The notes under the pieces were generated by a model. It was given only the letters and a program-made list of their open reading frames with translations, did no database searches and was not told the DNA's origin. 64,000 nucleotides of DNA, taken from contig CAVTQI010000004.1 in the NCBI GenBank assembly GCA_963736835.1, positions 27,706 to 91,705 on the forward strand, given 5' to 3'. Of this stretch, positions 3,569-42,994 are shown piece after piece. This stretch comes from an uncultured Actinomycetes bacterium (GTDB lineage: Bacteria > Actinomycetota > Thermoleophilia > Gaiellales > Gaiellaceae). A program made the translations under genes and the position numbers. Each line of letters begins with the position of its first letter. Within the stretch, counting starts at the first letter, position 1.

Positions 3569-4465
3569 ATGAATACCTCGGGAGCTTCGATCACGTTGAA
3601 CAACGGCGTCGAGTTGCCGGTCCTCGGACTGGGCGTCTTCCAGAGCCCTCCCGCCGAAACCATCGACGCCGTCGACGCCGCGATCGCGAACGGCTATCGG
3701 CTCGTCGACACCGCGGCCGCCTACGGCAACGAGCGCGAGGTCGGCGAAGCGATCCGCCGTTCCGGGATCGACCGCGACGAGATGTTCGTGACGACGAAGC
3801 TCTGGATCAGCGACTACGGCTACGAGGAGGCGCTCGTCGGCGTGGACGGCTGCCTGCGCCGACTCGGCTTCGACTACGTCGACCTCTTCCTCCTTCATCA
3901 CCCGGTCCCGACCGACTTCGACGGGACGATCGCCGCGTATACGGCGGCGGAGCAGATGCTGGCGGACGGTCGTGTGCGCGCGATCGGCATCTCGAACTTC
4001 AGCGAACGCCATCTCGGAAACCTGATGAGCCGGACGAGCGTCGTGCCTGCCGTCAACCAGGTCGAGCTGCACCCGTTCTTCACGCAGCAGGCCCTCCGCG
4101 ACTTCCACGACGCAAATGGCATCGCCACCCAGGCGTGGTCGCCGCTCGGCGGGATCAACCGATACCGCCCTGCTGACACGGGCAACGCGAAGGACCCGCT
4201 CGAGGAGCCGACGATCGTCGAGCTCGCAGCGAAGTACGGCAAGACGCCCGCGCAGGTCGTGCTCCGCTGGCACATCGAGCGCGGAGTCGCCGCGATCCCG
4301 AAGTCGGTCAAGCCACACCGCATCGCAGAGAACTTCGACGTCTTCGACTTCACGCTGACCCCGGACGAGGTCGCGGCGATCGACGCACTCGACACCGGCA
4401 TCCGCGGCGGCCCCGACCCCGAGCTCATCAACACCGAGCTCTACCCGCTCAAGGTCGAGAACTGA
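3569..4465 (+). CDS. aldo/keto reductase (diketogluconate-reductase-like)
   Basis: ITLNNGVELPVLGLGVFQ, YRLVDTAAAYGNE, LWISDYGY, LHHP, IPKSVKPHRIAENF. Confidence 0.9.
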   Translation: MNTSGASITLNNGVELPVLGLGVFQSPPAETIDAVDAAIANGYRLVDTAAAYGNEREVGEAIRRSGIDRDEMFVTTKLWISDYGYEEALVGVDGCLRRLGFDYVDLFLLHHPVPTDFDGTIAAYTAAEQMLADGRVRAIGISNFSERHLGNLMSRTSVVPAVNQVELHPFFTQQALRDFHDANGIATQAWSPLGGINRYRPADTGNAKDPLEEPTIVELAAKYGKTPAQVVLRWHIERGVAAIPKSVKPHRIAENFDVFDFTLTPDEVAAIDALDTGIRGGPDPELINTELYPLKVEN

Positions 4466-35606: not shown

Positions 35607-36215
35607 CTAGCCGCCGGTCGCAGAGAAGTGCTGGTAGTCGGGCGTGCCGGTCCAGCGGCCGCCCCACTGCCAGCCGACCGACCCGAACGCACGCACGAGC
35701 AGCCCGCCGCGCGCGGCCATCCCCGGCCTGACGTTCGAGCGGTCGAGGAACGCCTTCCCCGCTCGGGGGTGGACGCGTCCGCTTTCCAGGTACGGGTTCT
35801 CGACCGGGTTGACGTCGATCGCCAGGCCGGACGCGTGCACCGACCAGCGGCGGGGGCCGGGCCCGACCGCGTAGCGGCAGTTGAAGGCGGCGGTGTTGTC
35901 GGCCGCGAGCGAGCGCTCGTCGTTCGAGCCGTACGCGGTGATCGGCCGCATGCGGCGGATGGGGAAGCGAGCCCGATAGAGGCGCCTGAAGGCGATCGTC
36001 AGGTCGCCGACGGCGCTCGAGCTGACGACGAGCGTCCCCACGTGCGGCCGGCCATCGAACCCCCAGTAGCCGAGCCGAAGCCGGCGGAGCGAGGACGGCG
36101 CGACCGGGCACCCCGCGTGCCACGAGCTTCCGAGCTGCGCGCGGGTCACGGGTGCAACGGAATGCGTGAACGGCGGGCTCTGGACGGCGAGCAATGCGAG
36201 CAAGGCGAACCCCAT
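35607..36215 (-). CDS. secreted M15-family (VanY-like) D-Ala-D-Ala peptidase
   Basis: Signal peptide, SVHASGLAIDVNP (HxxxxxxD) and PDYQHF metal-ligand motifs. Confidence 0.8.
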   Translation of the reverse strand: MGFALLALLAVQSPPFTHSVAPVTRAQLGSSWHAGCPVAPSSLRRLRLGYWGFDGRPHVGTLVVSSSAVGDLTIAFRRLYRARFPIRRMRPITAYGSNDERSLAADNTAAFNCRYAVGPGPRRWSVHASGLAIDVNPVENPYLESGRVHPRAGKAFLDRSNVRPGMAARGGLLVRAFGSVGWQWGGRWTGTPDYQHFSATGG

Positions 36216-36244
36216 GGCCCATCGAGACTAGTCTGGATGGCCGC

Positions 36245-36955
36245 ATGAAGTGGACCTGCGCCCTTCTCGCCTGCCTCGCGTTCCTTCCTGCCGCTGCGGC
36301 CACCGGCCGTGACGCCGCGCCGCCGTCGTGCCCGGCCACGCTCGCCAACCAGCTCGCCGACACGGGCTCGGCGACCCAGCTCGTCACGGTCGCGTCGCTT
36401 CGAGCGAGCTCGCAGACCGGTGCGCTGCGTGTCTGGGAGAAGCGCGGCGACTGCTGGACGCAGGCGGCGGGGCCGTGGCAGGCGTGGCTCGGGATCCGCG
36501 GCATCTCCGAGCGCAAGCGCGAGGGCGACCTGAAGACCCCGAGCGGGGCCTTCGGAATCCAGCCGCTCATGTTCGGAGTCGGCCCCAACCCGGGTGTCCG
36601 CTACCGCTACCACCGGATCGTCTGCGGCGACTGGTGGGTCGAGGACCCGCGCTCCCGCTTCTACAACCGCTTCCGCCATGTGCCCTGCGGGTCGAGGCCG
36701 CCCTTCCGCGTCACGAGCGAGGACATGTCCGGGTCACCCTCGTCGTACCGGCACCTGGCCGTGATCGACTACAACACGCGCCCGATCGTCCCGGGCCGCG
36801 GGAGCGGGATCTTCCTCCACGTCAGCCACGGGAACGCGACCCTCGGCTGCGTCGCCGTCCCTCTCCCCCAGCTCGTCTGGCTCCTGCGCTGGCTCGACCC
36901 GGCCGATCACCCGTTGATCGTGATCGGGACGCGAAAGTCGATCCGGAAGTTCTAG
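36245..36955 (+). CDS. secreted L,D-transpeptidase (YkuD)-like protein
   Basis: Signal peptide MKWTCALLACLAFLPAAAA. GSGIFLHVSHGNATLGCVAV matches the His...Gly-Cys catalytic motif. Confidence 0.75.
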   Translation: MKWTCALLACLAFLPAAAATGRDAAPPSCPATLANQLADTGSATQLVTVASLRASSQTGALRVWEKRGDCWTQAAGPWQAWLGIRGISERKREGDLKTPSGAFGIQPLMFGVGPNPGVRYRYHRIVCGDWWVEDPRSRFYNRFRHVPCGSRPPFRVTSEDMSGSPSSYRHLAVIDYNTRPIVPGRGSGIFLHVSHGNATLGCVAVPLPQLVWLLRWLDPADHPLIVIGTRKSIRKF

Positions 36956-36965
36956 ACCCTCTGAG

Positions 36966-37090
36966 CCCGAAAACGAAAGCGACCCGCAAGGGGAGGGCGC
37001 GGGCCGCTTTTCTTTTCGATTGCGACCCGCAACGGGGAGGGCGCAGGCCGCGTTCGACGGTTTGTTGTGTTCGGCGGAATTTGCCTTGGC
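36966..37090 (-). ncRNA. 6C-like small RNA candidate (5' end approximate)
   Basis: Minus strand: GCGGCCUGC[GCCCUCCCCGUU]GCGGGUCGC (37051-37022), a 14-nt A-rich spacer, GCGGCCCGC[GCCCUCCCCUU]GCGGGUCGC (37007-36979), then UUUCGUUUUCGGG. G.U wobbles exist only on the minus strand (they are A.C mismatches on plus). Confidence 0.55.
36979..37017 (+). terminator. hairpin + T-tract after the L,D-transpeptidase-like gene (same hairpin as the sRNA terminator, bidirectional)
   Basis: GCGACCCGC-N11-GCGGGCCGC followed by TTTTCTTTTC. Flanked on the other side by GAAAACGAAA. Confidence 0.5.
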
Positions 37091-37109
37091 TCGATGAAAT
37101 CACCGGCTC

Positions 37110-37150
37110 CTAAGGGGAACCTGAACGGCGCCTAAGAAACGGCTAAGAGT
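37110..37150 (-). promoter_or_regulatory. four phased octamers (11-bp period): ACTCTTAG ccg TTTCTTAG gcg CCGTTCAG gtt CCCCTTAG
   Basis: Read on the minus strand. The first octamer contains the stop codon of the 37143-37838 gene. The array ends about 20-60 nt before the 6C-like hairpins. Confidence 0.45.
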
Positions 37151-37838
37151 CGGTGGCGCCCGGCATGCCCCAACCCCCTCGGTCCGGCGGGGCCTGGCGC
37201 CAGTGGAAGCCTCGGCGTTCCATGGGCATTCGCGGCAGAGAGCCGTTGACGATGTCGTCGAGGCGCGACTCGAGCATCTTCAGGCCTTCCTTCGCCTGCG
37301 CCTCGGTGATCACGCCATCCTTGACGGCCCGGTCGGCGGCCTTCGTCGCGCTGTCGAGGATCGCCTTCTTCAGCCCGTCGACCGACTTGTTCTGCGCCTT
37401 TGCGATGTCGGCCAGCGACTGGCCGTTCGCCAGCTTCTGCAGGAGTTGCGGCACCGACAGGCCGAGGTAGTCCGCCGTGGCGGAGAGGTGCTCGTGCGGG
37501 CCGAACGGCATCCCGTGGTGCCCGAAGTCGCCGAAGCGGTGTGGGCCGCCGAAGAAGAGCGGAACCTCGCCGCTCTCGATTCGCGCCTTCATCGCGTCGG
37601 CCTGCGCCTTGGTGATGCGGCCGGCCTTCAGGTCCGCGTCGACCTGGTCGATCGCCGCCGCCTTGGTCGCATCCTGGAGCTTCTCGGTCGAGATGCCGAG
37701 GTGCCCCGCCACCCGTGAGAGGAAGCTGTCGCCTCGCGCCGCCGAGCTCTTCGAGGCGGCGATGGCGCCACCCGCTCCGACCACAAGTGCAAGACCGGCC
37801 GTGAGGGCGAGAACGCGTTTGGAGTCGAGGTTCTTCAT
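37143..37838 (-). CDS. secreted helical protein, unknown function
   Basis: MKNLDSKRVLALTAGLALVVGAGGAIAA signal peptide. Repeated ITKAQADAMKARIESG / ITEAQAKEGLKMLESR helices. Lies next to htrA. Confidence 0.6.
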   Translation of the reverse strand: MKNLDSKRVLALTAGLALVVGAGGAIAASKSSAARGDSFLSRVAGHLGISTEKLQDATKAAAIDQVDADLKAGRITKAQADAMKARIESGEVPLFFGGPHRFGDFGHHGMPFGPHEHLSATADYLGLSVPQLLQKLANGQSLADIAKAQNKSVDGLKKAILDSATKAADRAVKDGVITEAQAKEGLKMLESRLDDIVNGSLPRMPMERRGFHWRQAPPDRGGWGMPGATDS

Positions 37839-37916
37839 CGGGTTCCTTTCGTCTGATCGAACCATCCGCTTCGAGGGCGGCCGGGCGTTTGGGCCCGGCC
37901 GCCGTTGACTCGTTCG

Positions 37917-39083
37917 TTACTGCTGCGGGATCGTCGCCGGACGCGTGGCGAGCTTCACGTCGACCGTGTGGCTGTCGCCGTTTCGCCAGTAGGTGATCTT
38001 CATGGTGTCGCCCGGCTGGTGCGCGTCGACTTTCTGCTGGACGTCTTCGGACGTCGTGACCTTCTCGCCGTCGATGGCGGTGATCACGTCGCCTCCCGTC
38101 GGGTACTGGTCGCCGTCGACCGTCTTGGTGCCGGTCGCGCCCTTGAGGCCCGCCTTGTCGGCCGGAGTGTTCGACCTGACGCTCGCGAGCTCGACGCCGG
38201 CGACGAGCTTCAGCTGGTCGGCCACCGACTCGGGGATCTGCTGCACGGAGACGCCGAGGTAAGCGTGCTCGACCTTCCCGCTGCCGATCAGCGTCTCCGC
38301 GATCGACTTGACGGTGTTGGACGGGATCGCGAACCCGACGCCGTCGCTGCCGCCCGAGTCGCTGCGGATCTGCGAGTTGACACCGATCACGTTGCCGTTG
38401 ATGTCGAGGAGCGGGCCGCCGGAGTTGCCGTGGTTGATGGCGGCGTCGGTCTGGATCGAGTCGTTGATGGTGAAGTTGTTCGGCGCCTCCATCTGGCGGT
38501 GAAGTGCGCTCACGATTCCGCTCGTCACGGTCTCCTCGAGGCCGAACGGGCTGCCGATGGCGATCGCCGTGTCACCGACCTGCACGCTGTTCGAATTGCC
38601 GAACTGGATCGGGTGCAGGACGGATTCCGGCGCGTCGACCTTGATCACGCCGAGGTCGGTGGAGGGATCGGTCCCGACGACGGAAGCCTTGTAGGTCGAG
38701 CCGTTCCAGAACTGGACGGAGACCGACTTCGCCCCGTCCACCACGTGGTCGTTCGTGACGATATGGCCGTCGGAGTCGATGACGAATCCGGAGCCCTGTG
38801 ATTTCTGCTGCTGCTGCTGCCCGGGCGTGCCGAACGATGGGCTCGCTTGGTCGGAGGTGACGGTGATCTCCACGATCGCCCGGTAGGCGTCGCGGTAGAC
38901 CTGGCCGACCGTCAGCGGAGTCGTCTGGGCCGCCGGCTCGGAAGCACCGACCGGCACGGAGCGGATTACTGTGGTCGATTTCGACCCGAAGGTCGAGTAG
39001 GCGACCGCGCCGGCCCCCGCGCCCAGGACGAGGGTGGCGATCAGGATCATTGCGATCATGGGGATGCGGGAGCGGCTGTTCAT
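37917..39083 (-). CDS. htrA: HtrA/DegP-family (S1C) serine protease with PDZ domain
   Basis: N-terminal TM anchor, TNDHVV, DLGVIKV, GNSGGPLLD catalytic triad context, C-terminal PDZ GDVITAIDGEKV. Alternative ATG at 39113. Confidence 0.9.
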   Translation of the reverse strand: MNSRSRIPMIAMILIATLVLGAGAGAVAYSTFGSKSTTVIRSVPVGASEPAAQTTPLTVGQVYRDAYRAIVEITVTSDQASPSFGTPGQQQQQKSQGSGFVIDSDGHIVTNDHVVDGAKSVSVQFWNGSTYKASVVGTDPSTDLGVIKVDAPESVLHPIQFGNSNSVQVGDTAIAIGSPFGLEETVTSGIVSALHRQMEAPNNFTINDSIQTDAAINHGNSGGPLLDINGNVIGVNSQIRSDSGGSDGVGFAIPSNTVKSIAETLIGSGKVEHAYLGVSVQQIPESVADQLKLVAGVELASVRSNTPADKAGLKGATGTKTVDGDQYPTGGDVITAIDGEKVTTSEDVQQKVDAHQPGDTMKITYWRNGDSHTVDVKLATRPATIPQQ

Positions 39084-39138
39084 CTGGTTCCTTTCGGATT
39101 TGCTTGCTCTCATGAGAGCAGCACTTGCCCTTACCCTG

Positions 39139-39158
39139 CCTGAGAGTGGGCTAAGAGT
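39139..39158 (-). promoter_or_regulatory. 8-3-8 direct repeat ACTCTTAG ccc ACTCTCAG in the divergent htrA / response-regulator promoter region
   Basis: Plus strand reads CCTGAGAGTgggCTAAGAGT. It lies 56 nt from the htrA ATG 39083 and 59 nt from the regulator ATG 39217. A further TTCTTAG lies on the plus strand at 39176-39182. Confidence 0.5.
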
Positions 39159-39216
39159 TCCGTTAAAGAAATGTTTTCTTAGCTGGCATTAACAGTCCTC
39201 ACGCAACAATTACCGC

Positions 39217-39900
39217 ATGAAGATCCTGGTAGTCGACGATGAACGGGCCGTCCGCGAGTCGCTCCGCCGAGCGCTCGAGCTGGAGGGCTACGAGATCGAG
39301 CTCGCGGCCGACGGGCGCGAGGCGCTCTACCGTCTGGAAGGCGACTCGGAGCCCGACGCGATGATCCTCGACGTGCTCATGCCCGGCGTGGACGGGCTCG
39401 AGGTGTGCAGGCGCCTGCGAGGGAGCGGGAGCAAGCTTCCCGTGCTGATGCTGACCGCGCGCACGCAGGTCGAGGACCGAGTCGAAGGGCTCGACGCCGG
39501 CGCCGACGACTACGTGACGAAGCCGTTCGCACTGGACGAGCTTCTCGCGCGCGTGCGAGCGCTCCTCCGCCGGACGGCCGACGAGGAGGGCGAGAGCGCA
39601 GACCTGATCCGCTTCGCCGACCTCGAGCTCGACCCCGCGACCCGGGAGGTCACGCGCGGCGGGCGCCCGATCGAGCTCACGCGCACCGAGTTCTCGCTCC
39701 TCGAGCTCTTCATGCGCAACCCACGGCAGGTGCTCACCCGGACGATCATTTTCGAGCGGGTCTGGGGATACGACTTCGGGTACGCGTCGAACTCGCTCGA
39801 CGTGTACATCGGCTACCTGCGGCGGAAGACCGAAGCCGAGGGCGAGCCTCGTCTGATCCAGACGGTTCGCGGCGTCGGCTACGCGCTCCGGGAGTCATGA
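39217..39900 (+). CDS. OmpR-family response regulator (MprA/MtrA-like)
   Basis: [37 protein letters not shown], winged helix [21 protein letters not shown]. Confidence 0.9.
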
Positions 39901-41225
39901 GCTTTCGCGCACGCATTGCGCTCGTGGCGGCCGGCGCCGTCGCGCTGGCCGTCGTGGCCGCTTCGGGCGTCGTCTATCTCGTCGTCAAGGATCAGCTCTA
40001 CTCGAGCATTGACGCGTCCCTGCGAAGCAGCATGGAGCGGATTCAGCACGGCCCACCCTTCGACTTCGCCGACGGGCCGCCACAGCCCGGAGTCTTCGGC
40101 GGCTACCCGCAGGCGGTGCGCCGGGACGGGGTCACGTACACGCGGCGCGGGCAGAACCTGACGCTGCCCGTCGACAAGCACGTCTTGCGCGTGGCCCGGG
40201 GCCAGGACGGCACGTATCTCGCGAACGCGAATGTCGAGAACGACCACGTCCGGGTGATCACGTTCCCGTACCAGCCAGGGTTCGCGGTCCAGATCGCGCG
40301 GCCGCTCGACGACACCGACCGTGCGCTCTCCAGGATCAAGGCCTTGCTCTTCTTCATCGCCGCCGGCGGGATCCTCATCGCCGCCGGGCTCGGCCTGGCC
40401 GTCTCGCGCGCAGCTTTGATACCCGTGCGGCGGCTCACGCAGGCGACCGAGACGGTCACCGAGACCCGCGACCTCTCGGAGCGCATCGAGGCCGGCGGGA
40501 AGGACGAGCTGGGGCGCCTCGCGACGAGTTTCAACGCGATGCTCGCCGCGCTCGAGGAATCCGACCGCGCGCGGAGCCAGCTCGTCGCGGACGCCTCCCA
40601 CGAGCTCCGCACGCCTCTGACGAGCCTCCGGACGAACATCGAGGTGCTCGCGAGCGACCGCCAGCTGCCGCCGGGCGAGCGCGAGCGCCTGCTCTCGGAC
40701 GTGATCGAGCAGCTCGGCGAGATGACGACGCTCATCTCCGAGCTGATCGAGCTCGCGCGCGGGGAACAGCATCGCGTGGAGCCGGAGGACGTCCGGCTCG
40801 ACCTCGTCACGGCCGGGGCCGTCGAACGGACGAAGCGCAACCGGCCGGGTGTCGAGTTCAAGACGGACCTGCACGAGTCGCTCGTCTACGGAGTCCCGGA
40901 GACGCTCGATCGCGCGCTGGGGAACCTGCTCGACAACGCGGCCAAGTGGAGCCCGCCCGACGGCGAGGTCGAGGTCTCGGTGCGCAACGCCGAGGTGACG
41001 GTCCGCGACCACGGGCCGGGGATCGACGACGAGGACCTGCCGTACGTCTTCGACCGCTTCTACCGCGCCCAGTCCGCCCGTAGCCTTCCGGGCTCGGGGC
41101 TCGGGCTCGCGATCGTGCGCCAGGTCGCGCAGGCGCACGGCGGGACGGTCGTCGCCGAGCGGGCCGAGGGAGGCGGAACGATCATGCGCTTCCGGCTGAA
41201 CGGCGCCGCCGAAGACAACTCTTAG
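39897..41225 (+). CDS. sensor histidine kinase (MprB-like)
   Basis: ATGA overlap with the regulator. 2 TM + HAMP. H-box [39 protein letters not shown]. Confidence 0.9.
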
Positions 41226-41261
41226 CCAGTTCTTACCGCGGGTTAACCCGCTTCTCAGGGA
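41218..41261 (+). promoter_or_regulatory. four phased octamers ACTCTTAG cca GTTCTTAC cgc GGGTTAAC ccg CTTCTCAG
   Basis: The first octamer contains the kinase stop codon. The array ends 20 nt before ATG 41281. It includes the perfect palindrome CGGGTTAACCCG (41239-41250). Confidence 0.45.
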
Positions 41262-41280
41262 GCGCGGCTTCCATGTCCGC

Positions 41281-41538
41281 ATGGCTACCACCAAGAACTC
41301 CAGAATCGCGGCGGCGAAGGAGCGGGCCGAGCAGGCGAAGACGCTGATCCTCGCCGCGGCGCTGGTCGCCTTCTTCGCCGCGATGGCGATGGAGCGCGGC
41401 GCGCATGCTTCCTCGACCTCGGGCGGGACCAGCCCCGCCGTCTCGTCCGACGAGTCGGACGACGGCTCCGGCTTCTTCGACGACGGCGGACTGGCACCGG
41501 CACAGGGGCCGCCCTCGACCTCGACGGGGACCTCGTGA
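41281..41538 (+). CDS. small single-TM protein with Ser/Gly/Asp-rich tail
   Basis: 85 aa, TM LILAAALVAFFAAMAM, tail SSTSGGTSPAVSSDESDDGSGFFDDGG. Stop overlaps the ApbE start (GTGA). Confidence 0.45.
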   Translation: MATTKNSRIAAAKERAEQAKTLILAAALVAFFAAMAMERGAHASSTSGGTSPAVSSDESDDGSGFFDDGGLAPAQGPPSTSTGTS

Positions 41539-42389
41539 ACATCCACCGGTTCGAGTCGATGGGCTGCCTCGTCGAGGTCGGCGGCGCGAGCGGCCGCGAG
41601 GCTGCCGCGATCGAGCGCCTCTTCCAGGCCCGCGACCGCCAGTTCAGCCGTTTCCGGCGGGAGAGCGAGCTGAGCCGCGTCAACCGCGCCGCCCGCGACC
41701 TGATCGTGGTCTCGAAGACGTTCGGGCAGATGGTGGAGCGCGCACTCAAGGCGGCGCGCGCGACGGGCGGCCTGGTCGACCCGACGCTGGGCGCCGCGCT
41801 GCGAACGGCGGGGTACGACAGAGATTTCCGTGAGCTGCGTCCGCGGCCCGAGCCGGCTCATGCAGGGCCGGTCGGCCGCTGGCGTTCCGTACGCGTGACC
41901 GGGCGTCTGCTTGCACGCCCGGTCGGCGTCGAGCTCGATCTGAACGGCGTCGTCAAGGGCCAGACGGTGGACGAGGCCCTCGACCTCCTCTCGGGCGAAG
42001 GGTTCGTGTCGGCCGGCGGCGACTACGCGGGGCGCGGCGCCTTCGACGTCGCGCTTCCGGCCGGCGGAGCTATTCGCGTCACCCGCGGAGGCCTCGCCAC
42101 GAGCGGGACGACGAAGCGGCGCTGGCTGCGCGCCGGCAGCCGGCAGCACCATTTACTCGATCCACGCACGGGCGCGCCGGCCGCCTCGCCGTGGGCCGAG
42201 GCGACGGTGAGCGCGGCGAGCTGCCTGCAGGCGGACATCGCGGCCAAGGCTGCGTTCCTGGTGGGAGACGCCGGCCCTGAGTGGCTCGACGAGCGCGATC
42301 TTCCCGGCCGCTTTCTGTCGGAGGACGGCACCGAGGTCGTGAACGACTCCTGGCGGCGCGCTCTGTCCCCCAGGTTGGCCGCGGCGTGA
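41535..42389 (+). CDS. apbE: FAD:protein FMN transferase (ApbE family)
   Basis: FESMGCLVEV..SRFRRESELSRVN..DLNGVVKG..ATSGTTKRRW..HHLLDPRTG. Confidence 0.85.
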   Translation: MNIHRFESMGCLVEVGGASGREAAAIERLFQARDRQFSRFRRESELSRVNRAARDLIVVSKTFGQMVERALKAARATGGLVDPTLGAALRTAGYDRDFRELRPRPEPAHAGPVGRWRSVRVTGRLLARPVGVELDLNGVVKGQTVDEALDLLSGEGFVSAGGDYAGRGAFDVALPAGGAIRVTRGGLATSGTTKRRWLRAGSRQHHLLDPRTGAPAASPWAEATVSAASCLQADIAAKAAFLVGDAGPEWLDERDLPGRFLSEDGTEVVNDSWRRALSPRLAAA

Positions 42390-42994
42390 CCCTCGCCGCG
42401 TTCGCCGTGGACTGGTACGCGGCCCGCGCCGCGGGTGTCGTCGCATACCTCCTCGTCTCTGCGTCGGTCGCGCTCGGTCTGCTCATGGCCGGGCGGCAGG
42501 GTTTCAAGGGTTGGCCCCGATTCGCGGTCGAGGACGTCCACCGCTTCGCCGGGCTGCTCGCCGGCGTCTTCATCGCGCTGCACGTCTTCTGGCTCGGGAT
42601 CGACTCGCAATCGCACCTGACCGCGGGCACGATCGTGATCCCGTTCACGTCGAGCTACCGGCCCTTGTGGACGGGCCTGGGCATCGTCGCGGCGGAGCTC
42701 CTCCTGGCCCTCGCCATCACGAATCACTATCGGAAGCGCCTGCGCTACTCGCTCTGGCGGCGGCTCCACTACCTCAACTTCGCGGTCTGGGCAGCGGCCA
42801 CTCTGCACGGGCTCGGGGCGGGCACGGACTCCGGCTCGACCGCGTTCCTGATCCTCTACGCAATCACCTCGGGCGTAATCGGAACACTCGCGCTGAGACG
42901 GTTCGCACGCACTCGACCGCCTACGCGAGCCGCCGCTCCAGGTACGCCGACAGTCGCGTCAGCGGGAACGAGATCACGAAGAACACGAGCATGA
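42386..42994 (+). CDS. ferric-reductase-like transmembrane (heme b) domain protein
   Basis: GTGA overlap with apbE. 6 TM with conserved His (VHRFAGL, ALHVFW, LHYLNF, TLHGLG). The 3' end overlaps the convergent permease. Confidence 0.7.
   Translation: MTLAAFAVDWYAARAAGVVAYLLVSASVALGLLMAGRQGFKGWPRFAVEDVHRFAGLLAGVFIALHVFWLGIDSQSHLTAGTIVIPFTSSYRPLWTGLGIVAAELLLALAITNHYRKRLRYSLWRRLHYLNFAVWAAATLHGLGAGTDSGSTAFLILYAITSGVIGTLALRRFARTRPPTRAAAPGTPTVASAGTRSRRTRA

Follow-up and report, generated by a model that had tools for sequence, protein, structure and literature searches.

Direct repeats of an MprA-type box at four predicted promoters of a Gaiellaceae htrA locus, one of them preceding a candidate small RNA

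In a 64-kb stretch of DNA (64,000 nucleotides (nt), 68% G+C; hereafter the window) from an uncultured Gaiellaceae bacterium, a direct-repeat box lies between an htrA-like protease gene and a divergently transcribed two-component operon, and the box is used again nearby. Which regulator would bind it, and what would its copies control? An earlier reading made without database searches (the sequence-only reading) had proposed an OmpR/PhoB-family site beside htrA and two-component genes, a proposal that we find supported by the domains of the encoded proteins, by the MprA-type homology of the regulator and by the binding motif of Corynebacterium glutamicum MprA. On the minus strand, 39158-39139 reads ACTCTTAGCCCACTCTCAGG, which is composed of ACTCTTAG (39158-39151), ccc and ACTCTCAG (39147-39140). 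The box at 39158-39140 is therefore as it had been described: two 8-bp direct repeats with a 3-bp spacer and an 11-bp period, as expected of an MprA box. It lies 55 nt from the htrA start codon (ATG 39083) and 58 nt from that of the regulator gene (ATG 39217); the 56 and 59 nt given earlier differ only in how the ends are counted. We consider it quite probable that the repeats are binding sites of the phosphorylated MprA-type regulator encoded at 39217-39900, which would activate four promoters of the locus.

We found that the 10-mer ACTCTTAGCC, with which the box begins, is present as exact copies at 37141-37150 on the minus strand (site A), 39149-39158 on the minus strand (site B) and 41218-41227 on the plus strand (site C), and nowhere else in 64 kb; a search of the window with one mismatch allowed gave no extra copies. 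The expectation is a mean of 0.04 copies and three were reached in 0 of 100 dinucleotide-preserving shuffles, so that the repeated box is far beyond chance, as had been argued for its reuse at sites A and C. Each copy heads three to four direct repeats with the core TCT[T/C]AG, spaced 11 bp apart, and the 11-nt phase is kept at all sites. In this phase, site A reads ACTCTTAGCCG / TTTCTTAGGCG / CCGTTCAGGTT / CCCCTTAGGAG, site B reads (TCTTTAACGGA) / ACTCTTAGCCC / ACTCTCAGGCA / GGGTAAGGGCA and site C reads ACTCTTAGCCA / GTTCTTACCGC / GGGTTAACCCG / CTTCTCAGGGA. The additional in-phase half-sites that had been noticed at the recurrences are thus present, and the arrays they form run to four repeats rather than two. 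To avoid circularity, we scored the window with a weight matrix built from 20 half-sites that come solely from two other Gaiellaceae genomes (L001 and L002). With this external matrix, no other tandem pair of the window comes near the three sites (27.5, 25.1 and 21.5 bits); the best pair elsewhere scores 7.4 bits. As four-repeat arrays, site A (29.8 bits, the best of the window) and site C (28.2 bits) stand against a shuffle maximum of 7.7 bits, and all strong arrays in the 64 kb cluster around the two-component operon. The arrays and the hexamers that follow them are given below.

37107-37150, minus strand: array A, four repeats, overlapping the stop codon of the DUF2680 gene and lying between convergent genes
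37094-37099, minus strand: -10-like TTTCAT of the predicted small-RNA promoter, 7 nt past the last repeat
39126-39169, minus strand: array B, four 11-bp direct repeats facing htrA, of which R2 and R3 form the 8-3-8 box
39169-39159, minus strand: R1, TCTTTAACGGA (weak)
39158-39148, minus strand: R2, ACTCTTAGCCC
39147-39137, minus strand: R3, ACTCTCAGGCA
39136-39126, minus strand: R4, GGGTAAGGGCA (weak)
39112-39117, minus strand: -10-like TCTCAT of the predicted htrA promoter, 8 nt past R4, assigned from the fixed spacing
39175-39196, plus strand: regulator-side direct-repeat pair TTTCTTAGCTG / GCATTAACAGT, 39 nt before the ATG
39205-39210, plus strand: -10-like AACAAT, followed after 6 nt by the regulator ATG 39217
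41218-41261, plus strand: array C, four repeats
41269-41274, plus strand: -10-like TTCCAT, followed after 6 nt by ATG 41281 of the gene for an 85-amino-acid protein, with the same spacing in L085, L219, L221 and L222

Closer relatives of the locus, gathered through homologues of the regulator and of the DUF2680 protein, comprise several lineages with differing gene orders. In L001 and L002, htrA is faced by four-repeat arrays and the regulator gene is preceded by a pair or array; a further array of four repeats follows the kinase gene and precedes the DUF2680 gene. An htrA-facing array is found in L001, L002 and all closer relatives, and array C is kept after the kinase gene in L081, L085, L219, L221 and L222. 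When gene order shifts, the arrays travel with the units they precede. Four-repeat arrays face DUF2680 in L219 (3954-3997), L222 (3922-3965) and L223 (1659-1702). The window lineage has lost the array before DUF2680 (37839-37916, minus strand), where all that is left is a TTCGAT remnant and a GC-rich hairpin (37903-37876) that has no U-tail, and DUF2680 is therefore probably co-transcribed with htrA there. When eight related htrA-regulator intergenic regions are aligned, the half-site cores, both -10-like hexamers and the Shine-Dalgarno (SD) sequence stand out as invariant blocks; GCAACAATT is invariant and the regulator-side pair is conserved. The sequence-only reading had named two sequence findings that would speak against it, a scattered motif and orthologous loci without the repeats. 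We observed neither, because related loci keep the repeats and the external matrix finds no other copies in the 64 kb.

These data also bear on whether the three 10-mers lack a regulatory role and stem from a mobile or recombinogenic repeat, or from chance. The flanks of the arrays are alike, e.g., GGTGATTTCATCGAGCCAAGGCAAAT after array A and GCTCTCATGAGAGCAAGCAAAT after array B, which suggests that the arrays are in part duplicated cassettes. However, the shuffles and the external matrix exclude chance, there are no terminal inverted repeats and no target duplications, and the cores, their phase and their distance from the -10-like hexamer persist across lineages even as the spacers diverge. 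We regard a lack of any regulatory role as extremely improbable.

Which protein would recognize the arrays? Homologues of the adjacent regulator at 92-98% identity are named 'OmpR family response regulator MprA' by the Joint Genome Institute (an automatic annotation). The closest genomic relatives are the Gaiellaceae metagenome-assembled genomes L001 and L002 (80-81% identity), and metagenomes contain thousands of homologues closer than these. The next-best genome matches (59-69% identity) belong to Nocardioides, Corynebacterium and Saccharopolyspora; in the last two, the locus is ordered regulator-kinase-HtrA, as is typical of mprA-mprB-pepD. These orthologues have the recognition helix SN(S/A)L(D/E)VYIGYLRRK in common with the regulator of the window, and it differs in paralogues of 48-50% identity. 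In C. xerosis (L003), S. spinosa (L004) and Nocardioides (L006), the start of the regulator gene is preceded at 38-41 nt by a TCTCAG-N5-TCTCAG pair. As in MprAB-type systems, a membrane histidine kinase is encoded immediately downstream of the regulator, and a linked htrA carries the box in its promoter. Judged by these annotations, identities, gene orders and the helix, the regulator appears to be an MprA orthologue. Among NCBIfam equivalogs, the regulator stays under the cut-offs of PhoB (228.8 vs 296.2), MtrA (217.2 vs 300) and CseB (201.7 vs 350), as well as those of OmpR and CpxR, and no MprA model is among the matches.

The MprA protein of C. glutamicum, when phosphorylated, binds the promoters of mprA, htrA and sigE and regulates itself positively, and its motif, TKTTAAGAAM, was derived from electrophoretic mobility shift assays and MEME (PMC12113857). 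The half-site TTCTTAG of the window is close to KTTCTTAAMA, the reverse complement of this motif, which is a loose one; the weaker half-sites TTTAAC and GTTAAC also fit KTTCTTAAMA. One or more other OmpR-family regulators encoded elsewhere might instead bind the arrays, so that the adjacent regulator would not be the main factor. Paralogues of 48-50% identity in Streptomyces, Mycobacterium and others have TTCTCAG/TTCACAG direct repeats upstream of their own genes, so this motif class is common to a wider subfamily. We nevertheless think that another regulator is very unlikely to be the main factor: the strong arrays of the 64 kb all cluster at this operon, they stay with it in every related locus, the recognition helix agrees with that of regulators that have TCTCAG pairs in their own promoters, and in experiments C. 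glutamicum MprA bound the mprA and htrA promoters at a TTCTTAA-like motif (PMC12113857). The paralogue repeats are of the TTTCTCAGGGAATTCACAGG type, with an 11-bp period, and lie 79-141 nt upstream of the respective regulator genes in L023, L035, L041 and L048 (Streptomyces/Kitasatospora) and in L013 and L034 (Mycobacteriales); they are a related but distinct box family.

If the adjacent regulator binds, what would it do? All arrays point toward a downstream unit, and the distance from the last 11-mer to a T(T/C)(T/C)CAT-like hexamer is 7-8 nt at every array in the window and in related loci. PhoB and OmpR of E. coli bind direct repeats 11 bp apart as head-to-tail winged-helix dimers, with the last repeat about 10 bp before the -10 element and in place of a -35 element. 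Since the 11-bp period, the tandem orientation and the approximately 10 bp to the -10-like hexamer match this design, we infer activation by head-to-tail dimers. Regulator dimers would bind head-to-tail on the 11-bp-period repeats with the core TCT[T/C]AG, two dimers to each four-repeat array. The last repeat core would end approximately 10 bp upstream of a weak -10-like hexamer, so that the array would stand in for the -35 element and recruit RNA polymerase, leading to activation in the PhoB/OmpR style. Compared to the E. coli pho box, the 11-bp spacing of the repeats is the same and the predicted promoter geometry would be similar, while the half-site and the regulator are different.

The regulator could also bind the arrays and repress, or repress htrA while activating itself. 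The direction of regulation is not readable from sequence, the divergent htrA-side and regulator-side arrays are just 5 bp apart, and a 16-bp palindrome at 39105-39120 over the predicted htrA -10 may provide additional control. In contrast, the arrays lie upstream of the -10-like hexamers, not over them, and would replace a recognizable -35, which is the geometry of PhoB/OmpR-type activation, and MprA activates htrA/pepD and itself in C. glutamicum (PMC12113857). We therefore judge repression unlikely and activation the better reading. For comparison with a mycobacterium, MprA of M. tuberculosis activates pepD and itself.

Several observations weigh against activation of these promoters by the adjacent regulator. 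Simple sigma-70 and terminator scans of 36800-41600 gave no consensus promoter and no terminator; the predicted -10 hexamers are non-consensus and mostly do not have the usual A at position 2, and the hairpin loops exceed the loop limit of the scan. The plus-strand pair on the regulator side scores just 4.7 bits on the external matrix. Most of the related loci are close relatives: the eight aligned intergenic regions are 85% identical, and their alignment by itself adds little, so deep conservation comes mainly from L001, L002 and the rearranged lineages. Paralogous OmpR-family regulators of other actinobacteria have similar TC(T/A)CAG repeats upstream, and the assignment of the sites to this regulator therefore rests on adjacency and orthology.

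The four predicted promoters of the 4.2-kb locus would share this design and serve the genes listed here with their neighbors.

35607-36215, minus strand: M15 peptidase
36194-36955, plus strand: YkuD L,D-transpeptidase
37143-37838, minus strand: DUF2680 protein, secreted or membrane-anchored, 231 amino acids from ATG 37838 (Pfam DUF2680, 5.8e-07; start placed from the SD and 231-amino-acid homologues)
37917-39083, minus strand: htrA-like serine protease, 388 amino acids, trypsin-like and PDZ domains (Trypsin_2, 8e-35; PDZ_2, 3e-17; start placed from the SD and the gene calls of relatives)
39217-39900, plus strand: OmpR-family response regulator, MprA-type, 227 amino acids
39897-41225, plus strand: cognate sensor histidine kinase, 442 amino acids, with HAMP, HisKA and HATPase_c domains; start overlaps the regulator stop
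41281-41538, plus strand: 85-amino-acid membrane protein with an acidic Ser/Thr-rich tail, no Pfam match
41535-42389, plus strand: ApbE FAD:protein FMN transferase
42281-42994, plus strand: open reading frame (ORF) of a ferric-reductase-like membrane protein, whose true start probably overlaps the ApbE stop

The first promoter would transcribe htrA, probably with the DUF2680 gene behind it. After TCTCAT there are approximately 20 nt that contain the SD GAAAGGAA, and then the htrA ATG 39083; transcription is predicted to start near 39105. A longer htrA ORF from 39113 was rejected, since its frame is broken by a 1-nt indel in L081, its ATG is missing in the L085 group and the SD precedes 39083. 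The palindrome at 39105-39120, TGCTCTCATGAGAGCA, is perfect and covers both the predicted -10 and the start; several lineages keep it with one wobble-compatible change, and the L085 group does not. The DUF2680 gene appears to be co-regulated with htrA across every lineage compared. Its product carries two (I/L)TxxQ motifs, a signal or anchor sequence and His-rich GPHRFG repeats that vary in number; a 240-amino-acid start at 37865 was replaced by ATG 37838 on the basis of the SD and the 231-amino-acid homologues. The (I/L)TxxQ motifs are the sole feature suggestive of Spy/CpxP, and we rejected the protein as a Spy/CpxP analogue because it has no Pfam LTXXQ/CpxP match (DUF2680 only) and no sequence relative in the PDB. 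An AlphaFold2 model of low confidence (predicted local distance difference test, pLDDT, 55) gave no Foldseek match at E<=0.001.

The second promoter would transcribe the regulator-kinase operon as a leaderless mRNA, with positive autoregulation. The sequence-only reading had proposed that the 8-3-8 box provides both protease control and autoregulation. The array that faces htrA is in line with the first part; for the second part, autoregulation more likely acts through the separate pair at 39175-39196, which that reading had not mentioned, than through the box. This pair occupies the position of the TCTCAG-N5-TCTCAG pairs in L002, L003, L004 and L006, in which the core is 38-41 nt before the start codon. 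A leaderless regulator mRNA is predicted from AACAAT and the 6 nt that separate it from ATG 39217, and the layout of a -10, 5-7 nt and a start codon recurs before the regulator genes of other lineages.

The sequence-only reading had not assigned units to the other two sites: site C precedes the 85-amino-acid/ApbE/ferric-reductase-like operon and site A a small-RNA candidate. Array C is predicted to be the third promoter, that of a leaderless operon at 41281-42994 on the plus strand. The mRNA is probably leaderless because the spacing of -10-like hexamer, 6 nt and ATG equals that of the regulator gene, and the gene order of the operon is kept in L002, L081-L096, L221 and L222. The stop codon TAG of the kinase gene (41223-41225) and that of the DUF2680 gene (37145-37143) fall within the first TCTTAG half-site of their array (C and A, respectively), so that one sequence would double as binding site and stop codon. 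In relatives a stop is retained at that half-site position, as TAA in L081 and L222 (L002 was also compared).

What would array A serve, when no ORF lies downstream of it and its TTTCAT hexamer? Past the hexamer, the minus strand reads CGAGCCAAGGCAAAUUCCGCCGAACACAACAAACCGUCGAAC, and hexamers homologous to TTTCAT (TTCCAT or TTCGAT) are present in L085-L091, L101-L207, L219, L222 and L223. Array A would drive the fourth unit, a conserved small RNA of approximately 120 nt under the same regulator, with these predicted parts.

36966-37087, minus strand: candidate small RNA, approximately 120 nt, with a single-stranded 5' part containing ...GAACACAACAAACCGUCGAAC
37051-37022, minus strand: hairpin H1 with a CCCUCCCC loop
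37007-36979, minus strand: hairpin H2 with a CCCUCCCC loop
36978-36966, minus strand: U-rich tail UUUCGUUUU

The two hairpins are near-identical, GCGGCC(U/C)GCG-CCCUCCCC(G)UU-GCGGGUCGC and then UUUCGUUUU, and the candidate has a fold energy of -59.1 kcal/mol (z = -2.9). When we scanned metagenomes for the loop and tail pattern, we obtained 120 matches, of which 15 were true and 105 were low-complexity chance matches that served as a negative control. All 15 true matches lie inside mprAB-htrA-DUF2680 loci, and a box pair of at least 16 bits was found for each of the 14 that had enough upstream DNA, compared to a maximum of 14.7 bits among the 105 chance matches. When 28 distinct copies are aligned by fitting to the model, 98.6% of cells are paired, three stem pairs show compensatory changes (GC/AU/GU, CG/UA and GU/CG; none in slid controls) and the CCCUCCCC loop hardly varies. 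RNAalifold, run earlier on 15 sequences, gave no covariation. Nothing in the whole window reaches an Rfam gathering score, including 6C (RF01066). A match to ar14 over the hairpins in a scan at E<=1 (26.4 bits vs a threshold of 58.8, E=0.08) was dismissed as a chance resemblance of C-rich loops.

Related loci show the element in three positions. In L085-L091, a single-hairpin version of approximately 80 nt lies between htrA and DUF2680 on the same strand, in the order htrA terminator hairpin, four-repeat array, TTCCAT, RNA and, directly after it, a second four-repeat array driving DUF2680. The terminator at ~3670-3700 (minus strand) of these loci is a strong hairpin, GGACATGTCCCAGG-N-CCTGGGACATGTCC, directly 3' of htrA and separate from the small-RNA array that comes after it, and its stem has compensatory changes between loci. 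In L219, the RNA element has its own array and comes after a separate DUF2680 terminator. The third position is directly behind the DUF2680 stop, as in L094 and L221, and the L085 group also has a degenerate second RNA copy there.

In a competing reading, site A is a decaying promoter cassette behind DUF2680 and the hairpins are mere terminators for the convergent DUF2680 and YkuD genes. On the plus strand, H2 is followed by UUUUCUUUUCGAUU and could thus terminate the YkuD gene; the window lineage has demonstrably lost its DUF2680-facing array, so cassettes do decay; in L094 and L221 the hairpin region comes directly after the DUF2680 stop with no array; and the candidate has no Rfam match. 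However, at least five lineages of distinct sequence, with three gene arrangements among them, have retained the array together with the -10-like hexamer, the 5' CCGUCGAAY and the CCCUCCCC loop. The unit follows htrA's own terminator between same-strand genes in L085-L091, and in L219 it follows DUF2680's own terminator. Moreover, a plain terminator needs no invariant loop, and here it is the stem that varies by compensatory changes and not the loop. Taken together, these data make decay a rather unlikely explanation.

Other results count against an RNA that has its own promoter and acts on targets. L094 and L221 carry the RNA without an array or promoter of its own, and H2 can double as a terminator of the convergent YkuD gene on the plus strand. 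A search of L001-L080, including L001 and L002, with the covariance model gave no RNA copy, so that the RNA seems limited to one sub-clade. RNAduplex of the loop versus putative start regions in the window gave GC-driven noise only, and among GGGGAGG sites near starts none was convincing.

How might such an RNA act? The CCCUCCCC loops would mimic an anti-Shine-Dalgarno sequence, and we therefore propose pairing with the G-rich ribosome-binding sites of target mRNAs. In the actinobacterial 6C RNA (RF01066), C-rich hairpin loops pair with G-rich ribosome-binding sites with no chaperone (PMC6486639). The candidate resembles 6C in its C-rich loops and differs in sequence, locus and apparent two-component control, with no match to the 6C model; by analogy, 6C-like pairing with ribosome-binding sites is the likely mode of action of the CCCUCCCC loops.

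A second parallel is the Cpx system. In E. coli, CpxR activates degP and cpxP, and the small RNA CpxQ comes from the cpxP 3' untranslated region (UTR). The locus is similar in that a single OmpR-family regulator would control a protease of the HtrA family, a small helical secreted protein and a small RNA located at, or past, the 3' end of the gene for that protein; in L094 and L221 the RNA is purely a 3'-UTR element. There is no homology to Cpx, and in most lineages here the RNA has a predicted promoter of its own. We give even chances to a broader proposal: that the RNA (37087-~36970) is the trans-acting arm of an MprAB-type envelope-stress response in Gaiellales, its loops silencing the translation of selected, probably exported, proteins under stress, and that related loci capture its evolution from a DUF2680 3'-UTR/terminator to a free-standing gene whose own promoter depends on the regulator. 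L094, L221 and the degenerate L085-L088 copy would represent the first stage, and the window, L085-L091 and L219 the second.

Among MprAB systems, that of C. glutamicum is alike in its OmpR-family regulator and kinase, its linked htrA and a similar motif, and its regulator binds the htrA and mprA promoters (PMC12113857). It differs in that the motif was published as one loose 10-mer and not as four repeats in phase, and that htrA lies downstream, whereas here htrA is divergent from the operon and the repeats form arrays. The targets visible here also go beyond those of C. glutamicum: the DUF2680 protein, the ApbE/ferric-reductase-like operon and the small RNA. MprAB-PepD of M. tuberculosis is an autoregulated envelope-stress system with a linked HtrA-like protease, with pepD downstream of mprB and with sigE and sigB as targets. 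Its box is reported (He & Zahrt 2005) as a pair of 8-bp direct repeats, loosely conserved, with 3 bp between them. The box at 39158-39140 has this 8+3+8, 11-bp arrangement too, a likeness of layout; no sigma-factor target is visible here, unlike in M. tuberculosis.

A further palindrome stands apart from the arrays: a near-perfect one of 22 bp, CCATCGAGACTAGTCTGGATGG, at 36219-36240, lies between or over the starts of the divergent M15 peptidase and YkuD genes and could be an operator of another regulator.

Gaiellales are abundant soil actinobacteria and almost uncultured; we know of no work on gene regulation in this order, and to our knowledge MprA-box logic has been studied only in Mycobacterium and Corynebacterium. 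The box would be an MprA-type site of a known kind in a lineage for which none had been described; what is new is the candidate small RNA and the way in which one promoter cassette is reused as a module. From sequence and comparison, the locus appears as a compact, testable MprA-type envelope-stress regulon in which the half-site is defined, the promoter geometry is fixed and the target units number four, which would extend MprA-box logic to a deep-branching class. The operon under array C would tie an envelope-stress regulator to extracytoplasmic flavinylation or electron transfer. For specialists, the box itself is expected, and the parts worth attention are the modular shuffling of the promoter cassette and the RNA: a candidate two-component-controlled small RNA with a clear hypothesis of action and a putative evolutionary path from 3' UTR to independent gene.

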